This document shows positions 40,533 to 58,049 of a stretch of 64,000 bases of DNA, in pieces (positions within the stretch are counted from its first letter, which is position 1; each line of letters opens with the position of its first letter). Location of the stretch: the sequence record OR352954; one strand, given 5' to 3'. The position numbers and the translations under genes are program-made. The notes below the pieces were generated by a model that was given only the letters and a program-made list of their open reading frames with translations, did no database searches and had not been told where the DNA came from. Origin of the DNA: Escherichia phage AV124.

Positions 40533-41672
40533 TTAGATTGCGGGTAATTGTGTTGCAGATTCAGGTACAACCTGTTCTGCGATTAACAAAATAGTTGAAG
40601 GGATGAATGTTGATCCAACAGCGGAAATCAAACACTGAGTCCCGTTTGTCGCCATATTGCCATTAACATCCACGCTGAACATATTGAGTAAGTTAATTGT
40701 ATCCTGTTGAGATGTACCTTGTACACGAGCTGCCGTTAGTCTGTTACCGACTGAAGGTGGGAAATTTAATTCTATCGCACGGTTACTTGAACTACTCGAC
40801 CAAGTTCCAATCAAATTCAGCTTAAAGTAAACGCTAAAGTTTGAGTTGTATACAATCATCTTATCGACGGTGGTATTGAAGAGCGGAGATAAACTACCGG
40901 AATGGGGTATATTCTTCAGAAGAGTGATAAGATTTGTTTCTGGACCTATCGTTACATCTGTAAGATTTGTCCAAGTAACTTCCACCTTTCTTCTTATACG
41001 AGATTCCGCAGGGGTTCCTGGCTCACCATCATCACCTTTTGGTCCCTCTGGACCCTGAGGTCCAGATGGGCCTTGTGGACCAGCAGGCCCTGTAGGCCCG
41101 ACCGGGCCTGTAGCACCTTGTGCTGCCATTAATGCCCAGTGTGTGGCAGAAGCCGGGTCTCCAGTAGGAGGCACTCCAGTTGACGTCAGTGTGTTGAAAT
41201 ACAATGCCCCGTTGTAAACAGCAGCATCGTTCTCAACATATGTTGTCGTTGAGGAATAGTTACCTTTAAACTCTAGACCCGTAGCCCCAGAAGGTCCCGT
41301 AGGTCCCTGTGGCCCCGTTGGGCCTTGAGGCCCTTGAGGGCCAGTTGGTCCTGCTGGTCCTTCTTCACCTTGAGGCCCTTCCGGGCCTTGAACTCCACGA
41401 GGTCCCTGCGGGCCTTGGGTTCCAGGTATTCCTTGGATTCCCTGAGGACCTGTAGCCCCATCCTGCACATTTATAATCGTTTTTACAGCATCTTGGTCAG
41501 CTGCTTTTAATATCTCTTTACCAATATCAGACGCATCGGTGATAGATTCAACAGTAATCTCACCTGACCCGCCATTCATGATATCATCAAAATCGATCTT
41601 ATTACCAGTCTTCTGACTAACAAGTGTTCTTCCATAAACAACACCAGCTACGCCAGCCGAAGCTATTGACAT
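40533..41672 (-). CDS. collagen-like repeat protein (379 aa)
   Basis: Uninterrupted Gly-X-Y tract ([58 protein letters not shown]) plus a second shorter tract. Confidence 0.7.
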
Positions 41673-42340: not shown

Positions 42341-43354
42341 TTACGCGAAAGTACCAGTCAGTTTAACAACCAGCTCTGGGCGGCAGTTAACTGTCAGGAA
42401 GGAAGTTTCAGACTCTACCTTCTCTTCACGCAGGTAAGCAGAAGATTTGTACCACAGGTACAGTTCTTGTGCCGGAGTATTCGCTTCACGAACATCATCT
42501 GCTGGCGCATAGTGGATCTGGAACATGTTGTCGATACCGCGCGGCAGCATGTAAGCTTCACCGTCCGGGATGTAACCGGAGATATCTTCGATGTACAGAA
42601 CGTTTTTGTGAACGAAGGAACGGTTGTTAGCGTTTTCCTGACCTTCACCAAGACGACGACGCAGCGGCTCTTGAGTAGAGCTGTAGTATTGGTATGCGTT
42701 CATGATCAGCGGGTGAGCGATGAAAGCAGAGAACCATTTACGAGAAGCCAGGACTACGATGTCGTAGTTGTTTCCGTTGTCACCAGCGTTGTCGATGATG
42801 AATGCACGACCATCGTTTTCGAGCAGGTCAGACGGGTCAACTGCAACGTCAGTGAAATCTACGTTAACAACTTCCTGGGTAACACCCCATTCGGTGAAGT
42901 AGTTATACTGAGCGGTCGGGTCCTGCGGTGCCCAAGATTTACCCATGATTGCCTGAAGCATTGCTTTTTCTTTAAGCTGTTCATGAGAAATACGGATACG
43001 ACGAACAACACGTTCAACTACGTCCTGTACAGATTTAGGAGCATCCGCAGTGAAATATTTACGGAAGTTCTGTACGTCTGCCGGAGTGATCTGACGATCC
43101 AGCGGGAAGAACGGGATGTTGAAGTTTTTCAGTTGGGCCTTTTCAGTACCAACGTAGTTACGTTCACCCTGACGACGACGAGCTGGGAAGTCGGTTACAA
43201 CTTCGTCAACACGCTCGATCTGGGCGATAGTAGAGACACCGTGATAAGCCTCGAAAAGGTTCATGTTGGTGATCATACGGTACTGACGAGGTACGATTTC
43301 CAGAGTTGCGCCTAGATCGACGATCTGGAAATCATTAGTGCGTACTACTGCCAT
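42341..43354 (-). CDS. major capsid protein (337 aa)
   Basis: Size, strong RBS AAGGAGA, position after scaffold/protease and before a strong terminator; fold not verifiable by eye. Confidence 0.55.
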   Translation of the reverse strand: MAVVRTNDFQIVDLGATLEIVPRQYRMITNMNLFEAYHGVSTIAQIERVDEVVTDFPARRRQGERNYVGTEKAQLKNFNIPFFPLDRQITPADVQNFRKYFTADAPKSVQDVVERVVRRIRISHEQLKEKAMLQAIMGKSWAPQDPTAQYNYFTEWGVTQEVVNVDFTDVAVDPSDLLENDGRAFIIDNAGDNGNNYDIVVLASRKWFSAFIAHPLIMNAYQYYSSTQEPLRRRLGEGQENANNRSFVHKNVLYIEDISGYIPDGEAYMLPRGIDNMFQIHYAPADDVREANTPAQELYLWYKSSAYLREEKVESETSFLTVNCRPELVVKLTGTFA

Positions 43355-43374
43355 TATTTTCTCCTTGGTGTAGA

Positions 43375-43794
43375 TTAGATAGACGTTACTGGGATCTCAA
43401 CGGAGCCGTCGTAATATTTATCAGTGATCTTCAGACCTTTGGCCTCAAGAGCAGCGATAGCAGCAGCGTTGATAGCAGTAGTACCGTCAGCAAAGAACAG
43501 TTTGGATTTGTTCAGGGTCAGACCACGAACAGCCACAACGAAGTTGTATTTAGTACCAACAACAAACTCACGAGGAGCATCGTATGCAGGAACCAAATCG
43601 CGGTCGGTGATTACACCAAATGCGCTTGCAGCGTCGGAAGTTGCAGCCAGAGTACCATCAGACTTGACGATCATCCCAGCCTTCAGCCCTGCGGAATAAG
43701 TGATTTCCATTTCCAGGAAGCTGTAGCCCTGATCAGAAGAATCAACTTTACCCAGGACGATGTCAGAGTAGTACCCTTGAATCGGATTAGCCAT
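43375..43794 (-). CDS. head decoration / capsid accessory protein (139 aa)
   Basis: Position between scaffold and capsid genes; RBS GAGGAGA. Confidence 0.4.
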   Translation of the reverse strand: MANPIQGYYSDIVLGKVDSSDQGYSFLEMEITYSAGLKAGMIVKSDGTLAATSDAASAFGVITDRDLVPAYDAPREFVVGTKYNFVVAVRGLTLNKSKLFFADGTTAINAAAIAALEAKGLKITDKYYDGSVEIPVTSI

Positions 43795-49343: not shown

Positions 49344-50797
49344 GAGATATCCCCATCACAATCTAATAATTCAACAATAGTCACCTTATTCCGAGGAGCC
49401 TTATCTTCTCGGTTTACAGACACTCGCCCATCTCCCTCGTACTCAAGGATAAGCGGGTCTTCCACGATAACCTTAAACAGACAAGCACCAGGTTCTATAC
49501 CCCCAACGTGCCAACTCCCCTGCACCCCATTCTTGCATAGCAGCTTATACCTCTCTTGTGCAGCATCAAGATCAAAATAAATACTGATCTTATCTAGCAT
49601 CTCTGGATTGTCGATGCTATTGCTATTAAGGCCGAATACGTGTTTTTCGGTATGCGCTTGCATCATGTAAAAATGCACAGCACTAGATACAGCCCAGAAC
49701 TCCTTAAAGTACAGGCGATCGGTGTTTTTACGCAGGCGTTGGAAAACATTGAAGATATCTTTAGCTTCAAGATTGAAACGCCGTTGCCCTTTACGCTTGT
49801 CGGTGATAGTGGCAATCGTACTGATAGTAATATCCCCTGCGTTATCCAGTTTATCAAATAATCGTTCAAATGAAAACGGTTCTTTTGTATCGAAGAGTTC
49901 TTCAACGTTTGTCCCGTACATACCACTAAGATGCTTTTTGGCATCCTCCCAGCTTTCCATTTTGAGACCTGCAACGGCAACACCCAACTTCATTGTTTCT
50001 CGACGGGAGATTGTATACCCACGGGCCTCGTACTTTGACGCTCGGAGCATACTGATGATCGGGTAGTCTGTCGCTGGATTAAGAACCAACACCTTCTGTG
50101 CAGCATGTTTAAGAAAACGACTGTCAAACACCCATGTTTCATCACCAAATGAGAAGGCACCCATATTGATGGTATAGTCAAACTTATCAAAGATCTGCCC
50201 AGCGTTCTCAAATACCGAGAATGCAATGCATTGCATCACCGGATTAGAACCCTCTGAAAACATAATGCTTTTGTCTGTCATGCCGATATTACGAACATAT
50301 GAGACTTTCTCCTTTCTACTTTCGAGCAGTTTTTCAATACCATCCCAAGTCGATTCAGAGATATCAGACAGATCAAAAGGGCAGTCACTGGCAAACTTAT
50401 CTTCCATCTCCACGATCTCTTGCTTAGACACTTTCTGAGAAAGAACCTTGAATCTTGGCGCACGGGATTCCCATACCTCTTTCCCATTGTCTAAAATGAA
50501 GAAATCACGATAAACACGTTTCTCTTCATTGTATCCCTTCGTTTTAGGCGACAGGTCATGTTCACCTTTTCGTAGGTCTATGTCGATCATATAAGTAATA
50601 AAGATCTCTAGGTCATCCCATGAACGGAAGTACAGGTCGAGATCATTAACTTCCCGGTTGGTAAAGAGAGCCGTGATAGCGCCTCCTGCGATTATAACAT
50701 CGAGGCTGCGAAGGATATGGTAAATATCCTCAGAGAAAAAACTTTTTAGTAAACGGTATTCTCGAAGATGTTCACTCTTCTCGTAAGTGTGGATCAT
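49340..50797 (-). CDS. Pol-beta-superfamily nucleotidyltransferase, CCA-adding-enzyme-like head motif (485 aa)
   Basis: Start at ATG 50797 (MIHTYEK) with RBS AAAGGAGACC; motif VIIAGGAITALFTNREVNDLDLYF (GGA, 11 residues, DxD) has the same spacing as the tRNA nucleotidyltransferase / poly(A) polymerase head domain but lacks the RD of GGxVRD. Confidence 0.55.
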   Translation of the reverse strand: MIHTYEKSEHLREYRLLKSFFSEDIYHILRSLDVIIAGGAITALFTNREVNDLDLYFRSWDDLEIFITYMIDIDLRKGEHDLSPKTKGYNEEKRVYRDFFILDNGKEVWESRAPRFKVLSQKVSKQEIVEMEDKFASDCPFDLSDISESTWDGIEKLLESRKEKVSYVRNIGMTDKSIMFSEGSNPVMQCIAFSVFENAGQIFDKFDYTINMGAFSFGDETWVFDSRFLKHAAQKVLVLNPATDYPIISMLRASKYEARGYTISRRETMKLGVAVAGLKMESWEDAKKHLSGMYGTNVEELFDTKEPFSFERLFDKLDNAGDITISTIATITDKRKGQRRFNLEAKDIFNVFQRLRKNTDRLYFKEFWAVSSAVHFYMMQAHTEKHVFGLNSNSIDNPEMLDKISIYFDLDAAQERYKLLCKNGVQGSWHVGGIEPGACLFKVIVEDPLILEYEGDGRVSVNREDKAPRNKVTIVELLDCDGDIS

Positions 50798-50829
50798 TCT
50801 GGTCTCCTTTAGTAAGTTACTTTTAGAGT

Positions 50830-50864
50830 GTACCAGAAAAAGAAAAGCCCCGCAAGAGCGGGGC
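50830..50864 (-). terminator. rho-independent terminator between tRNA array and nucleotidyltransferase gene
   Basis: On the minus strand: hairpin GCCCCGC-TCTT-GCGGGGC followed by TTTTCTTTTTCT. Confidence 0.55.
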
Positions 50865-50908
50865 GAGGCAAAGGAGAGGAGATATAATAATTTATTGTTA
50901 TTAGAATT

Positions 50909-50984
50909 TGGTTGCGAGCAGCGGAATCGAACCCCTCTGAACAAGCTTATGAGACTCGTGAATTCACCAGAATTCTAGCTCGCA
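50909..50984 (-). tRNA. tRNA-Met/Ile2 (anticodon CAT)
   Basis: Cloverleaf read by eye: acceptor TGCGAGC/GCTCGCA, D-arm GAAT-TCTGGTGA-ATTC, anticodon stem CGAGT/GCTTG with wobble pairs, loop CTCATAA, T-loop TTCGATT; CCA encoded. Confidence 0.7.
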
Positions 50985-50990
50985 ATTGTT

Positions 50991-51067
50991 TGGCGGGACG
51001 GGGTGGATTCGAACCACCGACACCATGATCTTCAATCAAGTGCTCTACCAAACTGAGCTACCGACCC
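50991..51067 (-). tRNA. tRNA-Phe (GAA)
   Basis: D-arm GCTC-AGTTTGGTA-GAGC, anticodon loop TTGAAGA, T-arm GGTGG-TTCGAAT-CCACC; CCA encoded. Confidence 0.75.
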
Positions 51068-51073
51068 GATGTG

Positions 51074-51158
51074 TGGTGGGCAAGGAGAGACTCGAACTCT
51101 CACGTCATAGGACGCCAGAACCTAAATCTGGTGCGTCTACCAATTTCGCCACTTGCCC
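51074..51158 (-). tRNA. tRNA-Leu (TAG)
   Basis: Anticodon arm CCAGA-TTTAGGT-TCTGG, long variable arm, T-loop TTCGAGT; CCA encoded. Confidence 0.75.
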
Positions 51159-51403
51159 TAATCGATCCTTCGGGAGAATGCCACCCTCGGACAAATACCA
51201 TGATAAGCACTTATAGGCAATATACTCATCAATCCTCGCTCCGTTTTGATATCGTTACCGCCACAAGGACGCATTGCGAACCATCAATATCCGAAGACTC
51301 GCCTTATCGTTGTACACCGAGTCGGGCTTCCTCTTTATTAGTTTGCTCTGTTACGCCACACGTAAATCCTGCAAGCCAGAAGGTCTCTACAGGAGAGCAA
51401 ATA

Positions 51404-51476
51404 TGGTGTGGATGGAAGGACTCGAACCTACATCAAACGGCTTCGTAGACCGTTGCCTGTCCGTCAGGACACCCAC
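51404..51476 (-). tRNA. tRNA-Arg (ACG)
   Basis: Anticodon arm ACGGT-CTACGAA-GCCGT, T-loop TTCGAGT, acceptor GTGGGTG/CATCCAC; CCA encoded. Confidence 0.75.
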
Positions 51477-51482
51477 ATAATT

Positions 51483-51559
51483 TGGTCTCCATAGAGTGAC
51501 TCGAACACTCAACCTCCTGGTCCCAAACCAGGCGCTCTACACTATTGAGCTACACGGAG
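51483..51559 (-). tRNA. tRNA-Pro (TGG)
   Basis: D-arm GCTC-AATAGTGTA-GAGC, anticodon arm CCTGG-TTTGGGA-CCAGG, T-arm GAGTG-TTCGAGT-CACTC; CCA encoded. Confidence 0.8.
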
Positions 51560-51657
51560 AGAAGTGCAGAATTTTAATTATCCCAGACACTGCAACTGGT
51601 ATTGCTGGCTAGCTAATAAGTTCTCCAAGCAAAGTTTTAATTTGCAAGGAGGATGTT

Positions 51658-51734
51658 TGGCGGGACCGAAGGGAATCGAACCCTCATTTTCCGCATCGAC
51701 AGTGCGGCACCATTACCTTGTCAGCCACGGCCCC
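51658..51734 (-). tRNA. tRNA-Asp (GTC)
   Basis: Anticodon arm CCGCA-CTGTCGA-TGCGG, T-loop TTCGATT, acceptor GGGGCCG/CGGTCCC; CCA encoded. Confidence 0.8.
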
Positions 51735-51741
51735 ATAAATT

Positions 51742-51826
51742 TGGCGACGAGCGTAGGAATTGAACCTACATAGAGCTAATGCTCGCGGATTAACAGTCCG
51801 CCGTTCTACCAATGAACCAGCTCGTC
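51742..51826 (-). tRNA. tRNA-Asn (GTT) with enlarged variable region
   Basis: D-arm GTTC-ATTGGTA-GAAC and anticodon arm GCGGA-CTGTTAA-TCCGC; variable region is 15 nt with a GAGC-ATTA-GCTC mini-hairpin; CCA encoded. Confidence 0.65.
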
Positions 51827-51886
51827 ATTTAAATACTTTATCAGTGAAAACAACCTTTTGCAAGAATTATTTTAACTGATTTAATT

Positions 51887-51962
51887 TGGCGGGAAGGGAA
51901 GGATTTTAACCCATCGTCTCTTCGCTTAAAAAGCGAATGCCTGACCGCTCGGCTACCTACCC
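51887..51962 (-). tRNA. tRNA-Lys (TTT)
   Basis: Anticodon arm TTCGC-TTTTTAA-GCGAA, T-loop TTAAAAT; acceptor has one mismatch; CCA encoded. Confidence 0.65.
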
Positions 51963-51970
51963 ATATTGTT

Positions 51971-52059
51971 TGGAGGAGAGCAACAGAATCGAACTGTCAC
52001 CGTATCTCTACGGTGGGACCGGGTTCAAACCGGAGCCTGCACCATGCAGCCTGCTCTCC
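51971..52059 (-). tRNA. tRNA-Ser (TGA)
   Basis: Anticodon arm CCGG-TTTGAAC-CCGG, long variable arm, T-loop TTCGATT; CCA encoded. Confidence 0.7.
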
Positions 52060-52064
52060 AAAAT

Positions 52065-52150
52065 TGGCGGAAGATGCAAGGGTTGAACTTGCACACCCTT
52101 TCGGATGGCGGTTTAGCAAACCGCTGTGGCTACCATTTCACCAATCTTCC
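52065..52150 (-). tRNA. tRNA-Ser (GCT)
   Basis: Anticodon arm GCGGT-TTGCTAA-ACCGC, long variable arm, T-arm GCAAG-TTCAACC-CTTGC; CCA encoded. Confidence 0.75.
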
Positions 52151-52296
52151 AATTGTTCTTTAATTTCTTTACGAAGATCTGCTTTTTCTTTCGCACGAGT
52201 AATAGGGACTGATTGAATCTCTTCTGCAACACCACAGTTACTACCGTGAAGTCTACAGCGTCCAAACACTTTCTTGCAACGCAAAAGTTTCTGCAT
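52138..52296 (-). CDS. small Cys-containing protein inside the tRNA array (52 aa)
   Basis: Start at internal ATG 52296 (MQKLLRCKKVFGRCRLHGSNCGV...) with RBS GGAGG at 4-nt spacing; three Cys in 13 residues; the 3-prime end of the frame runs into the adjacent tRNA-Ser. Confidence 0.35.
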   Translation of the reverse strand: MQKLLRCKKVFGRCRLHGSNCGVAEEIQSVPITRAKEKADLRKEIKEQLEDW

Positions 52297-52311
52297 AAAT
52301 CCTCCATAAAG

Positions 52312-52401
52312 TGGCGGAGAAGGAGAGAATTGAACTCTCAAGCCGTTTTACCAGTCAGCACCTTTCCAAGGTGTTTTCGTCACCTATCGATTTGCTTCTC
52401 C
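52312..52401 (-). tRNA. atypical type-II tRNA, possibly tRNA-Ser (GGA)
   Basis: Acceptor GGAGAAG/CTTCTCC and T-arm GAGAG-TTCAATT-CTCTC are clear; candidate anticodon arm ACACC-TTGGAAA-GGTGC; D-arm irregular; 90 nt; CCA encoded. Confidence 0.45.
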
Positions 52402-52405
52402 ATAT

Positions 52406-52482
52406 TGGGGTGGCTAGTGGGACTCGAACCCACATAGGACTGCCTCACAAGCAGTGTCATTATCCAGTTATGATATAGCCAC
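52406..52482 (-). tRNA. tRNA-His (GTG)
   Basis: Anticodon arm ACTGC-TTGTGAG-GCAGT, T-arm GTGGG-TTCGAGT-CCCAC; CCA encoded. Confidence 0.7.
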
Positions 52483-52554
52483 ATCAAAAGGCACTCCCAG
52501 CTTTCGGGTGAATTTCAAGAGCGGCTGCGCAACCACTTGAAGTACCTTTTGATA

Positions 52555-52630
52555 TGGCAGGAAGATCAGGACTTGAACCTGAACTACGGATTTCAAAGAC
52601 CCGTGTGCTAACCAATTACACCATCTTCCT
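52555..52630 (-). tRNA. tRNA-Gln (TTG)
   Basis: Anticodon arm CGGGT-CTTTGAA-ATCCG, T-loop TTCAAGT, D-arm GTGT-AATTGGTTAG-CACA; CCA encoded. Confidence 0.75.
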
Positions 52631-52785
52631 ATAATCGGTGAGGGCGCCTGAAACCGAGCCAGGCTAAGTATTGGACTGCAATCCTCAACTTATTTTGTTG
52701 CCGCCATGCTTACTTATGACCGACAAGAGTTCCCGTTGCAGCGGTAGATCATAGTCATTTTCAACATCCGGTCGCCCCCATTATT

Positions 52786-52859
52786 TGGAGCGTCTAGAGG
52801 GAATCGAACCCTACTCTGCGAGGCTTGGAAGGCCTGCGACACACCTCGTGCTTAGACGC
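52786..52859 (-). tRNA. tRNA-Trp (CCA)
   Basis: Anticodon arm AGGCC-TTCCAAG-GGCCT, T-loop TTCGATT; CCA encoded. Confidence 0.7.
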
Positions 52860-52866
52860 TTTAAAT

Positions 52867-52941
52867 TGGTGGGAGTATCTGGGATCGAACCAGAGACCTC
52901 TCGATTATCGGTCGAGCGTTCTACCGCTGAACTATACTCCC
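52867..52941 (-). tRNA. tRNA-Ile (GAT)
   Basis: D-arm GTTC-AGCGGTA-GAAC, anticodon arm CTCGA-CCGATAA-TCGAG, T-arm TCTGG-TTCGATC-CCAGA; CCA encoded. Confidence 0.8.
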
Positions 52942-53074
52942 ATTAATTGGTGCGCCCCTTTATAAAAATGTCTTCAAGCGGAGTCTTTATTGAAACAATA
53001 AATTTACTCACTCACCTAATCTTATTTTTACTCAGATGGACGTCTTTAGCGGAGCGTCCTCCACCTTCTTCGTT

Positions 53075-53161
53075 TGGTACGCCGTGATAGAGTCGAACTA
53101 CCCGAGCCTTTTGAGCAACAGATTTACAGTCTGTCCCGCTACCCCTACGGTCTAACGGCGC
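53075..53161 (-). tRNA. tRNA-Tyr (GTA)
   Basis: Anticodon arm ACAGA-CTGTAAA-TCTGT, long variable arm, T-loop TTCGACT; CCA encoded. Confidence 0.7.
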
Positions 53162-53163
53162 AT

Positions 53164-53514
53164 TTAGCCTTGTTTGAACTGAACAATATCTGTTGTGAAT
53201 GGCTTACTCATAGGAGTAGATTTCTTATCATCAACATTAGTTGTTTCAGCTTCTTCATTCTCTTCATCGAAGTAATCAGAAAGCATTTGTTCACCTTTCT
53301 CAATTACAAATCGAGCAATATTTTCCCTGATGTTGTCCTTTGTTGTGGCGCTTGTCATAAGGTCTTTTAGCACTTTATGAGCATCAGGAATCATAGCAAT
53401 CATATTGGTCTTAAGGTCAAGGATATTCTTCTCAAGCTGAATAGCATTAGACTCTTCTTTAAGGGGTCTACCTTTTCCTCTACGACGCTTTGTAAGTTGT
53501 TGTTTTACTGCCAT
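53164..53514 (-). CDS. hypothetical acidic protein inside the tRNA array (116 aa)
   Basis: ORF with ATG start; Lys/Glu-rich. Confidence 0.5.
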   Translation of the reverse strand: MAVKQQLTKRRRGKGRPLKEESNAIQLEKNILDLKTNMIAMIPDAHKVLKDLMTSATTKDNIRENIARFVIEKGEQMLSDYFDEENEEAETTNVDDKKSTPMSKPFTTDIVQFKQG

Positions 53515-53599
53515 AATAACCCCACTTATTAATATTATCAGATTTAAATTTATCTGTCAAGGGTCATTTTATCATTTTTTATAAAAATATTCAACAACT

Positions 53600-53674
53600 T
53601 GGAGCACGGTAGGTGAATCGAACACCTGACATTTCTTTTGCAGAGAAAGCTGTTGCCACTCCAGCAACCGTGCT
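53600..53674 (-). tRNA. tRNA-Cys (GCA)
   Basis: Anticodon arm TTTCT-CTGCAAA-AGAAA, T-arm AGGTG-TTCGATT-CACCT; CCA encoded. Confidence 0.75.
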
Positions 53675-53789
53675 TTCGGGGGACCCGATTATTTCAATTC
53701 GCTTCCACACATTCGGGTCAAGACGTGTCCTATAGTCTTTCGACGCTTCCACAGCTCGGAGTAAACCCGTCCCGGCTGTCCTGTGAATT

Positions 53790-53871
53790 TGGCGAAGGCG
53801 GCAGGATTCGAACCCGCATACTCCAATTACTCGATTAACGACGGGTTAGAAGCCCGTTGAGATACGCCCTC
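53790..53871 (-). tRNA. atypical tRNA-like gene (anticodon-like loop TCT, no recognisable D-arm)
   Basis: Acceptor GAGGGCG/CGCCTTC and T-arm GCGGG-TTCGAAT-CCTGC are clear; only one further hairpin ACGGG-CTTCTAA-CCCGT, followed by a 23-nt unpaired region; CCA encoded. Confidence 0.4.
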
Positions 53872-53877
53872 TTAAAC

Positions 53878-53966
53878 TGGTGCGGGATGAGGGATTCGAA
53901 CCCTCAAGGCCTAGAGGCCTACGAAGTCTTAAGCCTCGTGTGTACTGCCAATACCACCAATCCCGC
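53878..53966 (-). tRNA. tRNA-Leu (TAA)
   Basis: Anticodon arm CGAGG-CTTAAGA-CTTCG, long variable arm, T-arm GAGGG-TTCGAAT-CCCTC; CCA encoded. Confidence 0.75.
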
Positions 53967-54148
53967 AGAAATCTATTTTGTGAAGTCCCGATGTCCTGAC
54001 AACCGCCGTTGTCTCTCCGAAGCGCCTCTACTTGCGAAGAAGAGCCTACGCCATCCCTTTCATCAACTTGATATCAAAGCCGACACAGAGATCACACCCC
54101 ACTAGATGCAGGAGATTTTAAGTGTTTCAGAACCTCGCAGAATAGATT

Positions 54149-54257
54149 TGGAGCAGGGTGGTGGAATCTAACCACCTATGTATTTAGCCATGCTGTTAGT
54201 TCTGGCATATTTTTCAGGTCTGGATGGACCTCGCGGTTGACAAACCGCCTACCCTGC
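54149..54257 (-). tRNA. oversized tRNA-like gene (109 nt) with internal insertion
   Basis: Acceptor GCAGGGT/ACCCTGC, D-arm GCGG-TTTGTCAA-CCGC, T-arm GGTGG-TTAGATT-CCACC; stem AGGTC/GACCT closes a 6-nt loop; about 37 extra nt before the T-arm; CCA encoded. Confidence 0.35.
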
Positions 54258-54259
54258 AT

Positions 54260-54334
54260 TGGCTTCTCGAACAGGAATCGAACCTGTACCGTCCCTATCG
54301 TGGGACCGCTCTAACCAAAGTAAGCTATCGAGAA
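54260..54334 (-). tRNA. tRNA-like gene with 6-nt anticodon-position loop
   Basis: Acceptor TTCTCGA/TCGAGAA, D-arm GCTT-ACTTTGGTTA-GAGC, T-arm ACAGG-TTCGATT-CCTGT; stem GTCCC/GGGAC closes loop ACGATA; CCA encoded. Confidence 0.5.
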
Positions 54335-54340
54335 ATTGTT

Positions 54341-54416
54341 TGGTGCTCGCAGTAGGACTTGAACCCACGACCTTCTCCTTACAAGGGAGTTGCTCTACCA
54401 ACTGAGCTATACGAGC
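54341..54416 (-). tRNA. tRNA-Thr (TGT)
   Basis: D-arm GCTC-AGTTGGTA-GAGC, anticodon loop CTTGTAA, T-arm GTGGG-TTCAAGT-CCTAC; CCA encoded. Confidence 0.75.
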
Positions 54417-54817
54417 AAGAAATGCTGTTTCCGATTAACAGCCTGGAGGAGTCAGTTAGCCATATCTTGTGAGCTAAGATCCTATATCCAGGATTTAAGT
54501 AATCAAAGAAATTTTAGCTTTATGGTTTAGAAGTTTCAAGTTTAAACATTAAGCTTTGAACGATAATCTTTGAATGCTGAATGTTGAAGTCTTTCGAATT
54601 CGCGATTCGACAATTTCGATCAAGCCGCATCATTGTGCGGTCTGACGGAAAGATATGTTTAAGTATCATCCTATACGATTATGTTCGGAGCAGTTTAACC
54701 TCCGGCCCCGGTAGAGGCAAGATGTTTCTGACTTCGCTAACCAAAAACAGCATTTAAAAACTTTACCAGCTATCCACAGGAATTACAAGATGTTAATCAA
54801 GAATTCCTGCAAATATT

Positions 54818-55465
54818 TTAGATTGATCCTTCAATCTCTACTTCAGTCCGTGCATTTGACTCGGAAAGAACAAAGTCAACGTTAGACTTAAAGTCTTCAA
54901 TCTCTGCTTCCAGAGAACGAATGCGATCTGCCAGGCCCAGTGGATCGACAATGGAAGGAGTTCCCATGCTACGAACTGGCGCTTCTACTACAGCCAACTG
55001 TGCAGCGTCTGGCGCTTTATCACGTTGGACATATGGAGCACGAGCTGCTTCAAGCTTCGCTTCGAATTCCTGTGTATCACGGTTCAGGCGAACCTGAGCA
55101 TGATTATACTGAGACTTCAGTTTGCCAAGCAGAAGCTCTTTGAAAACGATGGTGCGTTTACGCTCAATCGCCTGAGCTACGGTCATAGACTCGCCAGCGA
55201 TCTCAACTTTTGTTACAGCGTTTGACTGAACAACTTTCGCCTTCAGGTCGTCGCGAACAGCCAGAAGATCCTGAACACCCTGGAAGTCTGCCTGAGCAGA
55301 TTTCTCGAAGTCCTCAACGCTCTGGATAGAGCCTGGGATCTGACGGTTTGCGTCAGTGCCTTTCGCGATGTGAATCGTGTTCAGCGCTTCGATACGCTTC
55401 TGAATCTTTTCCTCAACCTTGGTCAGGGTAGCCAGAGCGCGGGTTACAGACATCTTAGTAGACAT
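54818..55465 (-). CDS. coiled-coil protein (215 aa)
   Basis: Ala/Glu/Lys/Arg-rich heptad-like sequence. Confidence 0.5.
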   Translation of the reverse strand: MSTKMSVTRALATLTKVEEKIQKRIEALNTIHIAKGTDANRQIPGSIQSVEDFEKSAQADFQGVQDLLAVRDDLKAKVVQSNAVTKVEIAGESMTVAQAIERKRTIVFKELLLGKLKSQYNHAQVRLNRDTQEFEAKLEAARAPYVQRDKAPDAAQLAVVEAPVRSMGTPSIVDPLGLADRIRSLEAEIEDFKSNVDFVLSESNARTEVEIEGSI

Positions 55466-55539
55466 AGAATTCTCCTCTCATGAAATTTAAAATTTAAGTT
55501 ACTTCAAATATTTGCCGACATCCGTGTCGGCACTACGCA

Positions 55540-56151
55540 TTAGTTTTTGCCAGTATTAACAACTACGCCCTGGCGGTTAGCATCAGCTTTTGCGATTTCC
55601 AGACGGGTTTCGCGTTCAGCCTTCAGATCACCACGCGCTGCTTCAAGCTGTTCGGTCAGCATTGCAATGCGGTCATCCTTAGCCTTGCTATTAGCAGTAA
55701 GTTCTGCAATTGCAACCTTGTGAGCAGATTCCAGATTTGCCTTAACCGCATTCAGTTCGATTGCAGCGCTACGTTTAACGTCGGCAACTGCGCTTTCTAC
55801 AGCTTCAGCATTGTTCTGCTGAGAGATCGCCAGCTCTGCACGAAGGTCTTCAACAACACCCGGTTCTACAGCTACAAGGCCGCGAGATTTCAGGATAGAG
55901 TTCAGAACGGAATCTTCGTTTTCCAGAACTTTGATCTTCAGCTTGGATTTTTCTTCAGCCAGTTTTTCGTTGAACTGAACTTCAATTTGTCCCAGTTCCT
56001 GCTGCTTAAACTGAATTTCCTGACTGATCTTTTCAGACCCTTCTGCCAGAGATTGCAGTTCAGCGACTACTTTAGTCAGACCAGTAGCGGCAGTGGTTAC
56101 TGCTTTAGTGGCACGTTCAGTTACGGAAATTACAGTTTTAGAATCAGTCAT
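55540..56151 (-). CDS. coiled-coil protein (203 aa)
   Basis: Ala/Glu/Lys-rich heptad-like sequence. Confidence 0.5.
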   Translation of the reverse strand: MTDSKTVISVTERATKAVTTAATGLTKVVAELQSLAEGSEKISQEIQFKQQELGQIEVQFNEKLAEEKSKLKIKVLENEDSVLNSILKSRGLVAVEPGVVEDLRAELAISQQNNAEAVESAVADVKRSAAIELNAVKANLESAHKVAIAELTANSKAKDDRIAMLTEQLEAARGDLKAERETRLEIAKADANRQGVVVNTGKN

Positions 56152-56189
56152 TAAGTTATCCTTTGCGTTAAATTAGGTTTTAAATACTA

Positions 56190-56330
56190 CACTTACAGAT
56201 TGTGTTTGTCAAGCGAATCTTTGATTATTTCTTCGGTGGTAGGGTTGTTTTCAAACCATGACCAATAATACCAAAGAACAAGCAGGAAAGAGATCACTGA
56301 CATGATGATGAAGATAACACCGACACTCAT
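56190..56330 (-). CDS. small membrane peptide (46 aa)
   Basis: Below the track cutoff; translated by eye (MSVGVIFIIMSVISFLLVLWYYWSWF...); ATGA overlap with upstream gene. Confidence 0.4.
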
Positions 56331-56515
56331 CGTACAACGTCCTTAATGGAGTCACAAACTTCACCAACGACGTCTGCGGTAGGTGATACGACAATCTCAT
56401 CAGCGGCGTCAAAAACTTCTGCGGCTACATCTACAAAAGGTTCTGCAACAGTTGCAGTGACAACAACAGCAGTACCAACAATATCGCCAGCCATACGTAA
56501 TAATGTCCCTAACAT
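56327..56515 (-). CDS. small acidic protein (62 aa)
   Basis: Start at internal ATG (MLGTLLR) with RBS AAGGAGAA. Confidence 0.45.
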   Translation of the reverse strand: MLGTLLRMAGDIVGTAVVVTATVAEPFVDVAAEVFDAADEIVVSPTADVVGEVCDSIKDVVR

Positions 56516-56642
56516 TTTGTTCTCCTTTTGGTTCCGATTTGAAACGAGAGCACTTTCGTCCATTTAAGCTATCGCCCTGTGCCACTACGCGAGCCGGTCC
56601 AGCAAGAACGGGAGTCGAACCCGTATCTCTCTCATTTCAAAT

Positions 56643-56717
56643 TTGGTGGGGCATGAAGGATTCGAACCTTAGACAAACCGATTAAGAGTCTGCTACTCTA
56701 CCACTGAGTTAATACCC
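56643..56717 (-). tRNA. tRNA-Lys (CTT), anticodon stem imperfect
   Basis: Acceptor GGGGTAT/ATGCCCC, D-arm ACTC-AGTGGTA-GAGT, T-loop TTCGAAT, anticodon loop CTCTTAA with one stem mismatch; CCA encoded. Confidence 0.6.
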
Positions 56718-56782
56718 CGAAATAAGATCCGTGTTTTTAAAGACGTTTCACGGAATCGTCATTGTTCCCCATGCCGGAGGAA

Positions 56783-57094
56783 TTATTTTTTCTTCTTACC
56801 ATTTGGAGCTACGGTTTCAATAACCTTAGCTTCCTTCACTTTACCAGCACGTTCACGTTTTGTCTTACCTGTGCGAACACGGTAAGATGCAGAGATAATC
56901 TGACCACCCTCAATGCGGGTTTCTGACTTGTATTCACCCTTACGGCGATCAAATACCGAAACAGTCTTCTCTACACCACCAAGACGTACATCATGCGGAG
57001 CAGAATGCGTCTGAGTAGACTTTGACTCAAACTGGAAAGGCTGTTTGATAGCGTCAATAGCAGATACTTTCTTAGTAGAATTTTTCTTAGTCAT
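56783..57094 (-). CDS. basic hypothetical protein (103 aa)
   Basis: ORF with Lys/Arg-rich termini. Confidence 0.5.
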   Translation of the reverse strand: MTKKNSTKKVSAIDAIKQPFQFESKSTQTHSAPHDVRLGGVEKTVSVFDRRKGEYKSETRIEGGQIISASYRVRTGKTKRERAGKVKEAKVIETVAPNGKKKK

Positions 57095-57186
57095 AATTTT
57101 CTCCTTTGCATTTTATTTGGGAATTTCTCCCGTTTATGTTCATGAGGATATTAACTCAATCAATTATCCTCGTCAACATTTTTTAA

Positions 57187-57264
57187 TTGGTGACCCCCGG
57201 AGGATTCGAACCTACCTACCTCTCGATTATGAGTCGATTGCTCATACCTTATGAGCTTGAGGGC
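57187..57264 (-). tRNA. tRNA-Met/Ile2 (CAT)
   Basis: Anticodon loop CTCATAA, T-loop TTCGAAT, acceptor GGCCCTC/GGGGGTC with wobble pairs; CCA encoded. Confidence 0.65.
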
Positions 57265-57267
57265 CTT

Positions 57268-57340
57268 ATCGTTCAGAGTGGACTTGAACCACTGACCTTA
57301 TCCGTATGAAGAACATGCTCTACCAACTAAGCTACTGAAC
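57268..57340 (-). tRNA. tRNA-Met/Ile2 (CAT), no encoded CCA
   Basis: Acceptor CGTTCAG/CTGAACG, D-arm GCTT-AGTTGGTA-GAGC, anticodon arm TGTTC-TTCATAC-GGATA, T-arm AGTGG-TTCAAGT-CCACT; 3-prime end lacks CCA. Confidence 0.65.
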
Positions 57341-57365
57341 GGTTGTACTGTTGATGTGGTAGATA

Positions 57366-57566
57366 TTATAGATTGCCTGTTTCATTGTCAACGTCTTTTT
57401 TACTATTCTCGCAAATAAAACAGAAAATTTCTCTTTTAGGACCTATGTACTCCTTCCCGCAGTTAGTACAGGCTGAATGATAATACATACCCCGCAGACT
57501 TTCACCAGGCCAGTCTCTTTCAGAGAATGCGATGCAGTGATTGGAATTAGAAGTCTGGGTGCTCAT
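57366..57566 (-). CDS. small zinc-ribbon protein (66 aa)
   Basis: Start at internal ATG (MSTQTSN...); two CxxC pairs (CTNC ... CFIC). Confidence 0.45.
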   Translation of the reverse strand: MSTQTSNSNHCIAFSERDWPGESLRGMYYHSACTNCGKEYIGPKREIFCFICENSKKDVDNETGNL

Positions 57567-57666
57567 CAGAAGAAATCCCCTCTCCGAAACCAACGAAAAC
57601 ATCTACGTCTTCAGCCTGACGAATTCCTTCGCCGTAAACAATAAAGCCGTCAAATTCATCTTTCAT
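57547..57666 (-). CDS. small acidic protein (39 aa), overlapping the downstream gene start
   Basis: Below the track cutoff; translated by eye (MKDEFDGFIVYGEGIRQAEDVDVF...) with RBS AAAAGGAG. Confidence 0.35.
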   Translation of the reverse strand: MKDEFDGFIVYGEGIRQAEDVDVFVGFGEGISSDEHPDF

Positions 57667-57729
57667 CGTTTTGCTCCTTTTCGTTTTGAACGACTGATCG
57701 CCGCTTCAGCACGGCGTTGTTTGCGATTC

Positions 57730-57975
57730 TTAAATTGTTCGGAAGATTCGGAGAGCGTATTTGATTGTGAGATCTTCGTCATTGGGGTAGAAATAGTATA
57801 ATCCACCTTCTTCGCCGAAGGAGGCAACGTATTTCCAGGCTTCAATTCCAAAACCAGTTGTAGAAAAAGCGATCTCATCCGCTTCATCAGTGGCTTCATC
57901 CAGTTCCCTATGATTCGATTCGTGTTCAATATACTCTCCGTTATCAGATTTATAAACGAGTTTTAGTTTAAACAT
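57730..57975 (-). CDS. hypothetical acidic protein (81 aa)
   Basis: ORF in track. Confidence 0.45.
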   Translation of the reverse strand: MFKLKLVYKSDNGEYIEHESNHRELDEATDEADEIAFSTTGFGIEAWKYVASFGEEGGLYYFYPNDEDLTIKYALRIFRTI

Positions 57976-58049
57976 AGTGTCCTACCGTGTAAGTTGTTAA
58001 GAGTCAAGTTATTTCGATAACTCAATCTTACCAGCGGACACCTTTTTTG

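Follow-up and report, generated by a model that had tools for sequence, protein, structure and literature searches.

The gap at 54417–54817 of the 64,000-nt stretch of Escherichia phage AV124 DNA that we analysed (sequence record OR352954; referred to here as the window) raises the question of what is contained between a tRNA array and the protein gene next to it. The gap is bounded by a tRNA-Thr gene (54341–54416, minus strand) and by the stop codon of a 215-aa ORF (54818–55465, minus strand), a T5.085 homologue which belongs to the PHROG_1491 family (E = 3e-83) and is usually labelled 'tail fiber protein'. ARAGORN finds 19 tRNA genes in the array, and because all of these are on the minus strand the gap lies upstream of the array in the direction of transcription, as the initial annotation of this sequence had placed it, with tRNA-Thr(UGU) as the first gene of the array and outside the conserved RNA described below. 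That annotation had also described the gap as AT-rich and without an ORF on either strand, and had expected it to hold the promoter or processing signals for the tRNA array, or a replication or packaging element. The GC content of the gap is indeed lower than that of its flanks (0.345–0.42 compared with about 0.45–0.53), but this makes it only moderately AT-rich, and two short ORFs do exist, one of 49 aa with an ATG (54520–54669, minus strand) and one of 58 aa from the ORF list (54581–54757, plus strand), although neither looks coding. The expected promoter or processing role is partly supported by our analysis, with the main content of the gap appearing to be a conserved structured RNA.

Comparison with related phages, which had been suggested as a check, found the whole gap to be very highly conserved. 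The region matches Klebsiella Mydovirus-type phages (Vequintavirinae) at 99% identity, and a BLAST search with the gap returned 68 phage records from five or more genera. The gap is more conserved than the neighbouring gene, as it is 92.9% identical at the nucleotide level in the Raoultella phage Ro1 where the adjacent protein shares 70.7% amino acid identity, and 85.9% identical in GAP31 where the protein shares 74%. An alignment of 13 phages (A1) consists of near-invariant blocks separated by variable hairpins. Neither this conservation of the entire gap nor an 18–21 bp complementarity between its two ends (54735–54755 and 54420–54440) had been described in the initial annotation, and the long-range helix is kept in the relatives. 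The minus strand between 54420 and 54755 is predicted to encode a structured RNA of ~336 nt, the parts of which are, in order, a closing helix (P1), a 5' H-type pseudoknot, a set of variable hairpins, ~90 nt of heptad repeats, and a 3' three-helix domain.

P1 was recovered in a repeat search of the window as an 18-nt complementarity with its two arms 300 nt apart. The 5' strand (AAAUGCUGUUUUUGGUUAGCG, 54735–54755, minus strand) ends in a conserved CGAA junction and pairs with the 3' strand (UGUUAAUCGGAAACAGCAUUU, 54420–54440, minus strand) which ends 4 nt before tRNA-Thr, giving a duplex of 21 bp in the window (–26.7 kcal/mol, z = –7.3) and of 20 bp in T5/RN29, and in every member compared P1 is an uninterrupted duplex of 17–21 bp with an energy of –21 to –29 kcal/mol. 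RNAalifold independently pairs A1 columns 68–88 with columns 453–471, which correspond to P1, and MFE folds have P1 as the closing stem both of the window element (z = –5.0) and of a T5-like homologue (z = –3.7). Cognate P1 flanks form duplexes of about –19 to –29 kcal/mol (z of –4.4 to –8.6 against shuffled flanks), whereas cross-clade combinations reach only –4 to –16 kcal/mol. An ungapped mini-alignment of P1 (A3) has 90.8% of cells paired and compensatory double changes in 16 of the 21 pairs, though it should be noted that this and the pseudoknot mini-alignment were registered by hand with one offset per sequence and lean slightly towards structure; none of 500 shuffles reached the observed pairing, and slid registers gave 35–49%. 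In more distant loci the P1 helices are 13–21 bp long, many of them only 13–15 bp, and have unrelated sequences; here the z-scores are weak, given the large 5' search space, and we relied instead on the consistent register, in which CGA closes the 5' strand and GGCUG precedes the start of the 3' strand. Several P1 positions are G–U in nearly all of the sequences, and because there are many G–U pairs the helices are continuous only in the minus-strand RNA.

The 5' pseudoknot (54686–54723, minus strand) has the sequence AUCUU-GCCUCU-ac-CGGGG-cc-GGAGGU-uaaacug-CUCCG in which two stems are interleaved, with S1 (6 bp, GCCUCU/GGAGGU) pairing 54713–54718 with 54698–54703 and S2 (5 bp, CGGGG/CUCCG) pairing 54706–54710 with 54686–54690. 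The strands occur in the order S1-5', S2-5', S1-3', S2-3', and the loops in the window measure 2, 2 and 7 nt. S1 is 100% paired and mostly invariant among the enterobacterial phages, with a U–G to G–C change in T5, and three of the five S2 pairs have compensatory double changes. The T5 pseudoknot (ACCUCG/CGAGGU and CAGCGGU/ACCGCUG) retains the interleaved topology with other sequences, and the topology is also found in three further distant loci as well as in a Bacillus locus; MAFFT misaligned the T5 rows in S2. RNAalifold offers two nested hairpins as an alternative, which we rejected as the A ending the S2 5' strand in Av-05 and in the divergent viral contig L018 pairs only in the pseudoknot model, and the T5 sequence supports the pseudoknot only. 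The resemblance of S1 to a Shine–Dalgarno/anti-Shine–Dalgarno pair (CCUC/GGAGG) is not general, as distant members use CCCU/AGGG and similar pairs (CCCU/AGGG, ACCU/AGGU and CCUU/AAGG were read by eye).

The region between the pseudoknot and the 3' domain is where the lineages differ most in their hairpins and where the repeats are found. A small hairpin reported in the initial annotation, CCGCA-TCATTG-TGCGG, is present one base away from where it had been placed, at 54625–54640 (minus strand), and is a lineage-specific insertion in the variable region which is absent from Ro1, Seunavirus and others, with different hairpins at this place in other lineages (e.g. UUCCCCCGAUAUAGGUUCGGGGGAA in L018). 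The many TTGAA-type repeats also noted there are real and occur far above chance; read on the minus strand, they are UUCAAAG-type heptads with a 7-nt period. The A-rich tract they form (54505–54596, minus strand; UUCAACA UUCAGCA UUCAAAG ... UUCAAAG ... UUUAAAC UUGAAAC ... AUAAAG CUAAAAU) contains about ten repeats over ~90 nt and is predicted to be mostly single-stranded. Among 43 related loci the spacing of AAG peaks at 7, 14 and 21 nt, whereas the ORF control has only a 3-nt period, and UUCAAAG is the commonest heptamer ending in AAG across the family. The repeat unit in four divergent IMG/VR loci is UUCAAAA or CUCAAAA, with the period still ~7 nt. That the heptads resemble anticodon loops, T-loops or slippery sequences is speculation on our part.

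The 3' domain (54439–54496, minus strand; AAAUCCUGG...AGGA...UAGC[UCACAAGAUAUG]GCUA...UCCUCCAGGCUG) is formed by three stacked helices, and helices 2–4 are 87–97% paired with compensatory changes in each. Outside the core RNA and directly after the ORF stop, the inverted repeat which the initial annotation had reported (CAGGAATT-N17-AATTCCTG, 54777–54809, minus strand) is exact at 54777–54784 and 54802–54809, and its pairing is kept in the relatives through compensatory changes. This hairpin (P0) is 89% paired with double changes in three pairs; it is replaced by unrelated hairpins in L018 and three other loci, some of them followed by U-runs, and is absent in the T5-like phages. P0 may act as a weak terminator or simply as a hairpin at the 3' end of the mRNA.

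The 215-aa protein has homologues in 738 phage records, 408 IMG/VR stretches and 199 bacterial-genome stretches, and we used these to determine how widely the RNA is distributed. A covariance model built on the 3' domain (R1) matched 55 of 80 IMG/VR loci which had been fetched via alignment of the protein homologues, all of them on the ORF strand and 200–400 nt past the stop codon, and including phages with only 32–40% protein identity. A second model (R2), built from the loci matched by R1, recovered 24 of the remaining 25 as well as a weak match in the last one (i.e. 79–80 of the 80). R2 also matched 69 of the 80 bacterial-genome loci kept from the 199, on the same strand and in the same position, and its only match in the 64-kb window at E < 0.01 is the 3' domain itself (54439–54496, E = 8e-12). 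We note that individual distant matches to the covariance models are weak (E of 1e-2 to 1e-4) and convincing only through their consistent strand and position; distant loci that we read through have the full architecture with different helix sequences and a like heptad tract, and the orientation of the element relative to the ORF is constant in about 150 loci. A pattern scan of metagenomes found L018, which has a like architecture and a wholly different P1 sequence, while five other loci from the first such scan were chance matches and were discarded. In a Parabacteroides MAG there are two matches to the 3' domain downstream of one ORF (2348–2408 and 2710–2766 of that locus), possibly a tandem duplication of the RNA.

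A BLAST search with the TH18 copy led to a T5-like Salmonella phage in which a 440-nt gap without annotation follows the homologous ORF (gp073) and contains a 20/20-bp P1, a clear pseudoknot, the heptads and the 3' domain. About 440 T5-like phage genomes carry the element at ≥90% identity. In T5 itself it is found at 43142–43504, between T5.085 and the annotated promoter of T5.084, with no annotation in the T5 record, and the element is therefore followed there by a promoter and a protein gene (T5.084). In Bacillus altitudinis the ORF lies between an amino-acid permease gene and genes for Ig-domain proteins, in a non-phage neighbourhood with no tRNA within 1.5 kb, and is followed by the RNA and then by a clean intrinsic terminator; intrinsic terminators are also found after P1 in three other loci. 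The B. altitudinis arrangement argues that the ORF and RNA form a self-contained unit, with the RNA at the 3' end of the ORF transcript. In Paenibacillus xylaniclasticus a skipping-rope RNA (RF02924, 54 bits) lies ~95 nt after the 3' domain (2528–2656 of the locus). Judged from these comparisons, the predicted family spans the Vequintavirinae, T5-like phages, many other large phages and bacterial chromosomes, and we are highly confident that a conserved family of structured RNAs accompanies the ORF.

The position next to tRNA genes is a feature of only part of this family. Same-strand tRNA genes occur within 1.5 kb of the element in 31 of 50 viral loci, sometimes directly after the element and sometimes directly before the ORF (as in Bacillus phages), and tRNAs are near the element in only six of 40 bacterial loci. 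This distribution indicates that the RNA travels with the upstream ORF and not with the tRNAs, and that the core association is of ORF and RNA, with large phages putting the pair inside tRNA clusters.

Searches for known RNAs gave no match to the element. At E ≤ 1, Rfam 15 returned only tRNAs and chance matches for 50000–58000 of the window with nothing in the element, and the element was also unmatched by Rfam in six viral and six bacterial loci; the ROOL and GOLLD models (RF03087 and RF01998) were unmatched in the window and in twelve related loci, and neither ARAGORN nor RF00005 found a tRNA or tmRNA in 54417–54817. We rejected the phage K lncRNAs (PMC9241854) as members of the family, as the phage K regions have no match to our models and PhageK_033 is not a homologue, and sRNA1 and sRNA2 of PAK_P3 (PMC4933390) as relatives, as their gene context is unrelated. 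We also rejected a type III toxin–antitoxin RNA. ToxI-like RNAs have tandem repeats of ~34–45 nt upstream of an endoribonuclease toxin gene, and here the repeats are of 7 nt and downstream of an ORF whose protein has no significant PADLOC match. Our literature search found no paper on this RNA and, for T5, no transcript data on the element locus. A catalogue of short viral RNA motifs (PMC10690425) lists candidates of only 29–151 nt.

The partner protein offers few clues of its own. Pfam, NCBIfam and PADLOC gave no family for the 215-aa protein, and a PDB sequence search found only 3kdq, an uncharacterised Corynebacterium protein which is also the only structure that the AF2 model resembles in a Foldseek search of the PDB. 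The model (pLDDT 86.7) is an elongated helical bundle with long helices and small sheets, and has no recognisable RNA-binding fold. Homologues are of 205–220 aa and contain no nuclease or other known domain. We find no support for the 'tail fiber' label, given the absence of a Pfam domain, the resemblance of the model to 3kdq only, and the location of the gene in tRNA clusters or, in Bacillus, next to a permease gene. The next ORF upstream in the window (203 aa, 55540–56151, minus strand, PHROG_9325) encodes a coiled-coil protein and is syntenic in the Vequintavirinae loci examined.

The best reading of this locus is probably a new ORF-associated non-coding RNA which forms an RNP with the protein encoded upstream. 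The RNA would be co-transcribed with the ORF, as there is no promoter-like site between them here and the bacterial unit ends in a terminator directly after P1, and would fold into a compact particle closed by P1, its defined fold being due to the pseudoknot and 3' domain. The 20–21-bp P1 of this phage and of T5 is long enough for RNase III, and here a cut in P1 combined with RNase P processing of tRNA-Thr, which starts 4 nt further on, could free the RNA from an mRNA–tRNA precursor. The window and T5/RN29 duplexes do have the length usually taken for RNase III sites (about two helical turns, or ≥20 bp), but because P1 is only 13–15 bp in many distant members such cleavage is not a universal role, and we regard the RNase III step as less likely than not. 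The ~ten heptads could provide a multivalent platform to which a protein binds, and the most plausible candidate is the elongated helical PHROG_1491 protein that is inherited along with the RNA; this pairing is suggested by co-occurrence alone and we hold it to be possible but rather doubtful. The explanation as a whole (structured RNA, co-transcription, processing and RNP) has in our judgement a slightly better than even chance of being right, and the chances are evenly balanced that the element is a discrete functional non-coding RNA and not purely a cis element. The embedding of the element in the tRNA clusters of large virulent phages suggests a role that may be tied to tRNA or translation biology or its defence. 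A bolder proposal, which we put forward as a conjecture with the odds against it, is of an ancient and hitherto unrecognised RNP module shared by large virulent phages (including T5) and Firmicutes and cyanobacteria-related chromosomes, in which the heptads would bind an array of proteins and the particle would act in trans on tRNA or translation biology, e.g. by decoying or blocking defence nucleases that target tRNAs, or by serving as a scaffold for tRNA handling.

The RNA could alternatively act purely in cis on its own mRNA, with P1 as an RNase III-type site at which the upstream mRNA is parted from the tRNA precursor, or as protection for the 3' end of that mRNA, and with the excised piece having no function. 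The uninterrupted 20–21 bp duplex in the window and T5 is what would be expected of such a site, as are the end of P1 just 4 nt before tRNA-Thr, the likeness of this arrangement to the stems that flank rRNAs in their operons, and the location of the element in a 3' UTR in bacterial genomes. However, the stem alone would suffice for this purpose, and conservation between enterobacterial phages and Bacillus chromosomes extends to the pseudoknot, 3' domain and heptads; in many members P1 falls short of the length needed for canonical RNase III cleavage, and the element persists in ORF–RNA–terminator units where nothing needs to be separated. We think a purely cis role unlikely. A DNA-level element, i.e. 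a replication origin or packaging site made up of short iterons, an AT-rich stretch and inverted repeats, would account for the composition of the gap, its about ten short direct repeats and its long inverted repeats, and we know of no T5 replication origin which has been mapped to sequence. Against this, many G–U pairs would read as A–C mismatches in the opposite strand, the element keeps one orientation with respect to the ORF, the element is present in ordinary bacterial chromosomal contexts with a terminator after it, and the 7-nt period is unlike that of known iterons, which are of 17–22 bp. The replication or packaging role raised by the initial annotation is thus disfavoured, by the constant orientation and by helices that are continuous only in the minus-strand RNA, and we rate it as highly improbable.

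In line with the main idea of the initial annotation, the gap could be chiefly a promoter, with AT-rich UP-type sequences and the leader of the tRNA array. There is a sigma-70-like site on the correct strand (TTGAAA-17-TAAAAT, 54539–54511, minus strand; –35 at 54534–54539 and –10 at 54511–54516, 10 of 12 matches) which is ~95 nt upstream of tRNA-Thr and embedded in the heptad tract, the A-rich upstream repeats resemble UP-elements in composition, and L018 has a strong TTGACA promoter before its tRNAs and just after the element. The site is kept in several genera, but only in Mydovirus, GAP31/PVP-SE1 and TH18/Av-05, and is missing at the homologous place in FENT2, 4MG, KE22, NINP13076, Hena1, pEp_SNUABM_01, L034 and the T5-likes, even though tRNA-Thr is directly downstream in FENT2, 4MG, KE22 and Hena1. 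Furthermore, there are loci that have the heptads and flanking structures but no tRNA gene downstream, and the covariation points to selection on RNA pairing which spans the putative promoter. The promoter-like site is not the reason for the conservation of the region, and we judge it very unlikely that the gap is chiefly a promoter. The site may nonetheless start the tRNA-array transcript near 54504, and a promoter coexisting here with the RNA has a little less than an even chance, plausibly as a lineage-specific add-on that arose from the A-rich heptads. Finally, the 49-aa ORF might encode a small protein, since it has an ATG and the record of Proteus phage Mydo lists it as a CDS, as do some records annotated with PHANOTATE, yet its frame changes after ~8 residues between close relatives, indels within it are not multiples of three, and it is absent in PVP-SE1, KE22, Hena1, L018 and T5, leaving this with a probability close to negligible.

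Large structured non-coding RNAs have been described from phages and prophages, often beside tRNA genes, as ROOL, GOLLD (RF03087 and RF01998) and the phage K lncRNAs (PMC5737381, PMC12286853, PMC9241854), with the phage K lncRNAs being abundant and next to tRNAs (PMC9241854). Like ROOL and GOLLD, the element is in or beside a same-strand tRNA cluster in the 31 viral loci counted above, but it differs from all three in having no sequence or structure match to them, in being smaller (about 270–400 nt), in being obligately paired with one protein gene, and in having a long single strand of heptads as well as non-phage chromosomal contexts. A parallel in inheritance is provided by the HEARO RNA (the IscB omega-RNA), where an RNA–ORF association later proved to be an RNP. 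Both are structured RNAs of several hundred nt inherited with one particular ORF; our element differs in being 3' of the ORF, in having a 205–220-aa helical protein without a nuclease domain as partner, and in showing no guide-like variable segment and no transposon ends. In rRNA operons with their flanking stems, and at phage RNase III sites, distant sequences pair around a functional RNA within a polycistronic transcript containing tRNAs. The ends of our element are likewise hundreds of nt apart and form a ~20 bp duplex, which would be a candidate cleavage site, but P1 is 13–15 bp in many members and the enclosed RNA is not rRNA. The heptad platform proposed above is modelled on the protein-sponge RNAs CsrB/RsmZ, with which the element shares a length of ~350 nt and a short motif repeated about ten times, and in CsrB these repeats titrate many copies of one protein; the motif here is UUCAAAG with strict 7-nt spacing in a single strand, in contrast to GGA in hairpin loops. 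The T4 species 1 and 2 RNAs (120–140 nt) and the T5 'rnaX' are stable RNAs and, like the element, are distinct from tRNAs but encoded in a phage tRNA region. In the T5 record (NC_005859) a 719-nt 'rnaX, stable RNA with unknown functions' is annotated at 40848–41566, 1.6 kb from the element, which at 43142–43504 is a different and unannotated locus.

The element would add a new family of structured RNAs that is very widespread and has a protein as its obligate partner. It has gone unannotated in the classic model phage T5, and it is also present in Bacillus chromosomes and in Klebsiella, Salmonella and E. coli phages that are candidates for therapy. Orphan RNAs of this ORF-associated kind that were described earlier, HEARO among them, were later shown to be RNA-guided machines, and the large phage RNAs beside tRNAs (ROOL and GOLLD) are a current open problem; the element is smaller than these, lends itself to genetics in T5 and E. 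coli, and has a candidate protein partner, so that the proposal is directly testable. In hundreds of genome records the partner gene carries the mistaken label 'tail fiber', and spurious small ORFs are called within the RNA. If the conjecture of an RNP module acting in trans on tRNA or translation biology were true, this would be a new functional class and not one more orphan RNA.

Several features of the downstream tRNA array were noted in the course of this work. A stretch at 53793–53871 (minus strand) scores 34.9 bits with the Rfam tRNA model, which is above the gathering score, and has no ARAGORN gene; it may be an unannotated or degenerate tRNA. ARAGORN reports 'tRNA-???' with a two-base anticodon at 54260–54334 (minus strand), and in the relatives the second slot of the array is Ser as annotated in Mydo, Arg(gcg) in GAP31 and Ile(gat) in PVP-SE1, which suggests turnover or an unusual anticodon loop. 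The next 107 nt (54152–54258, minus strand) have a weak tRNA-Sec-like match (22 bits, E about 1), and a 108-nt 'tRNA-sup(tca)' suppressor is annotated at the equivalent place in the Erwinia phages Hena1 and pEp_SNUABM_01, so a suppressor-like tRNA with a long arm may be encoded here. A 116-aa ORF (53164–53514, minus strand, PHROG_3330) embedded midway in the array is kept in PVP-SE1 (gene 82) and rV5 (gp070), and in PVP-SE1 a promoter is annotated before this gene.
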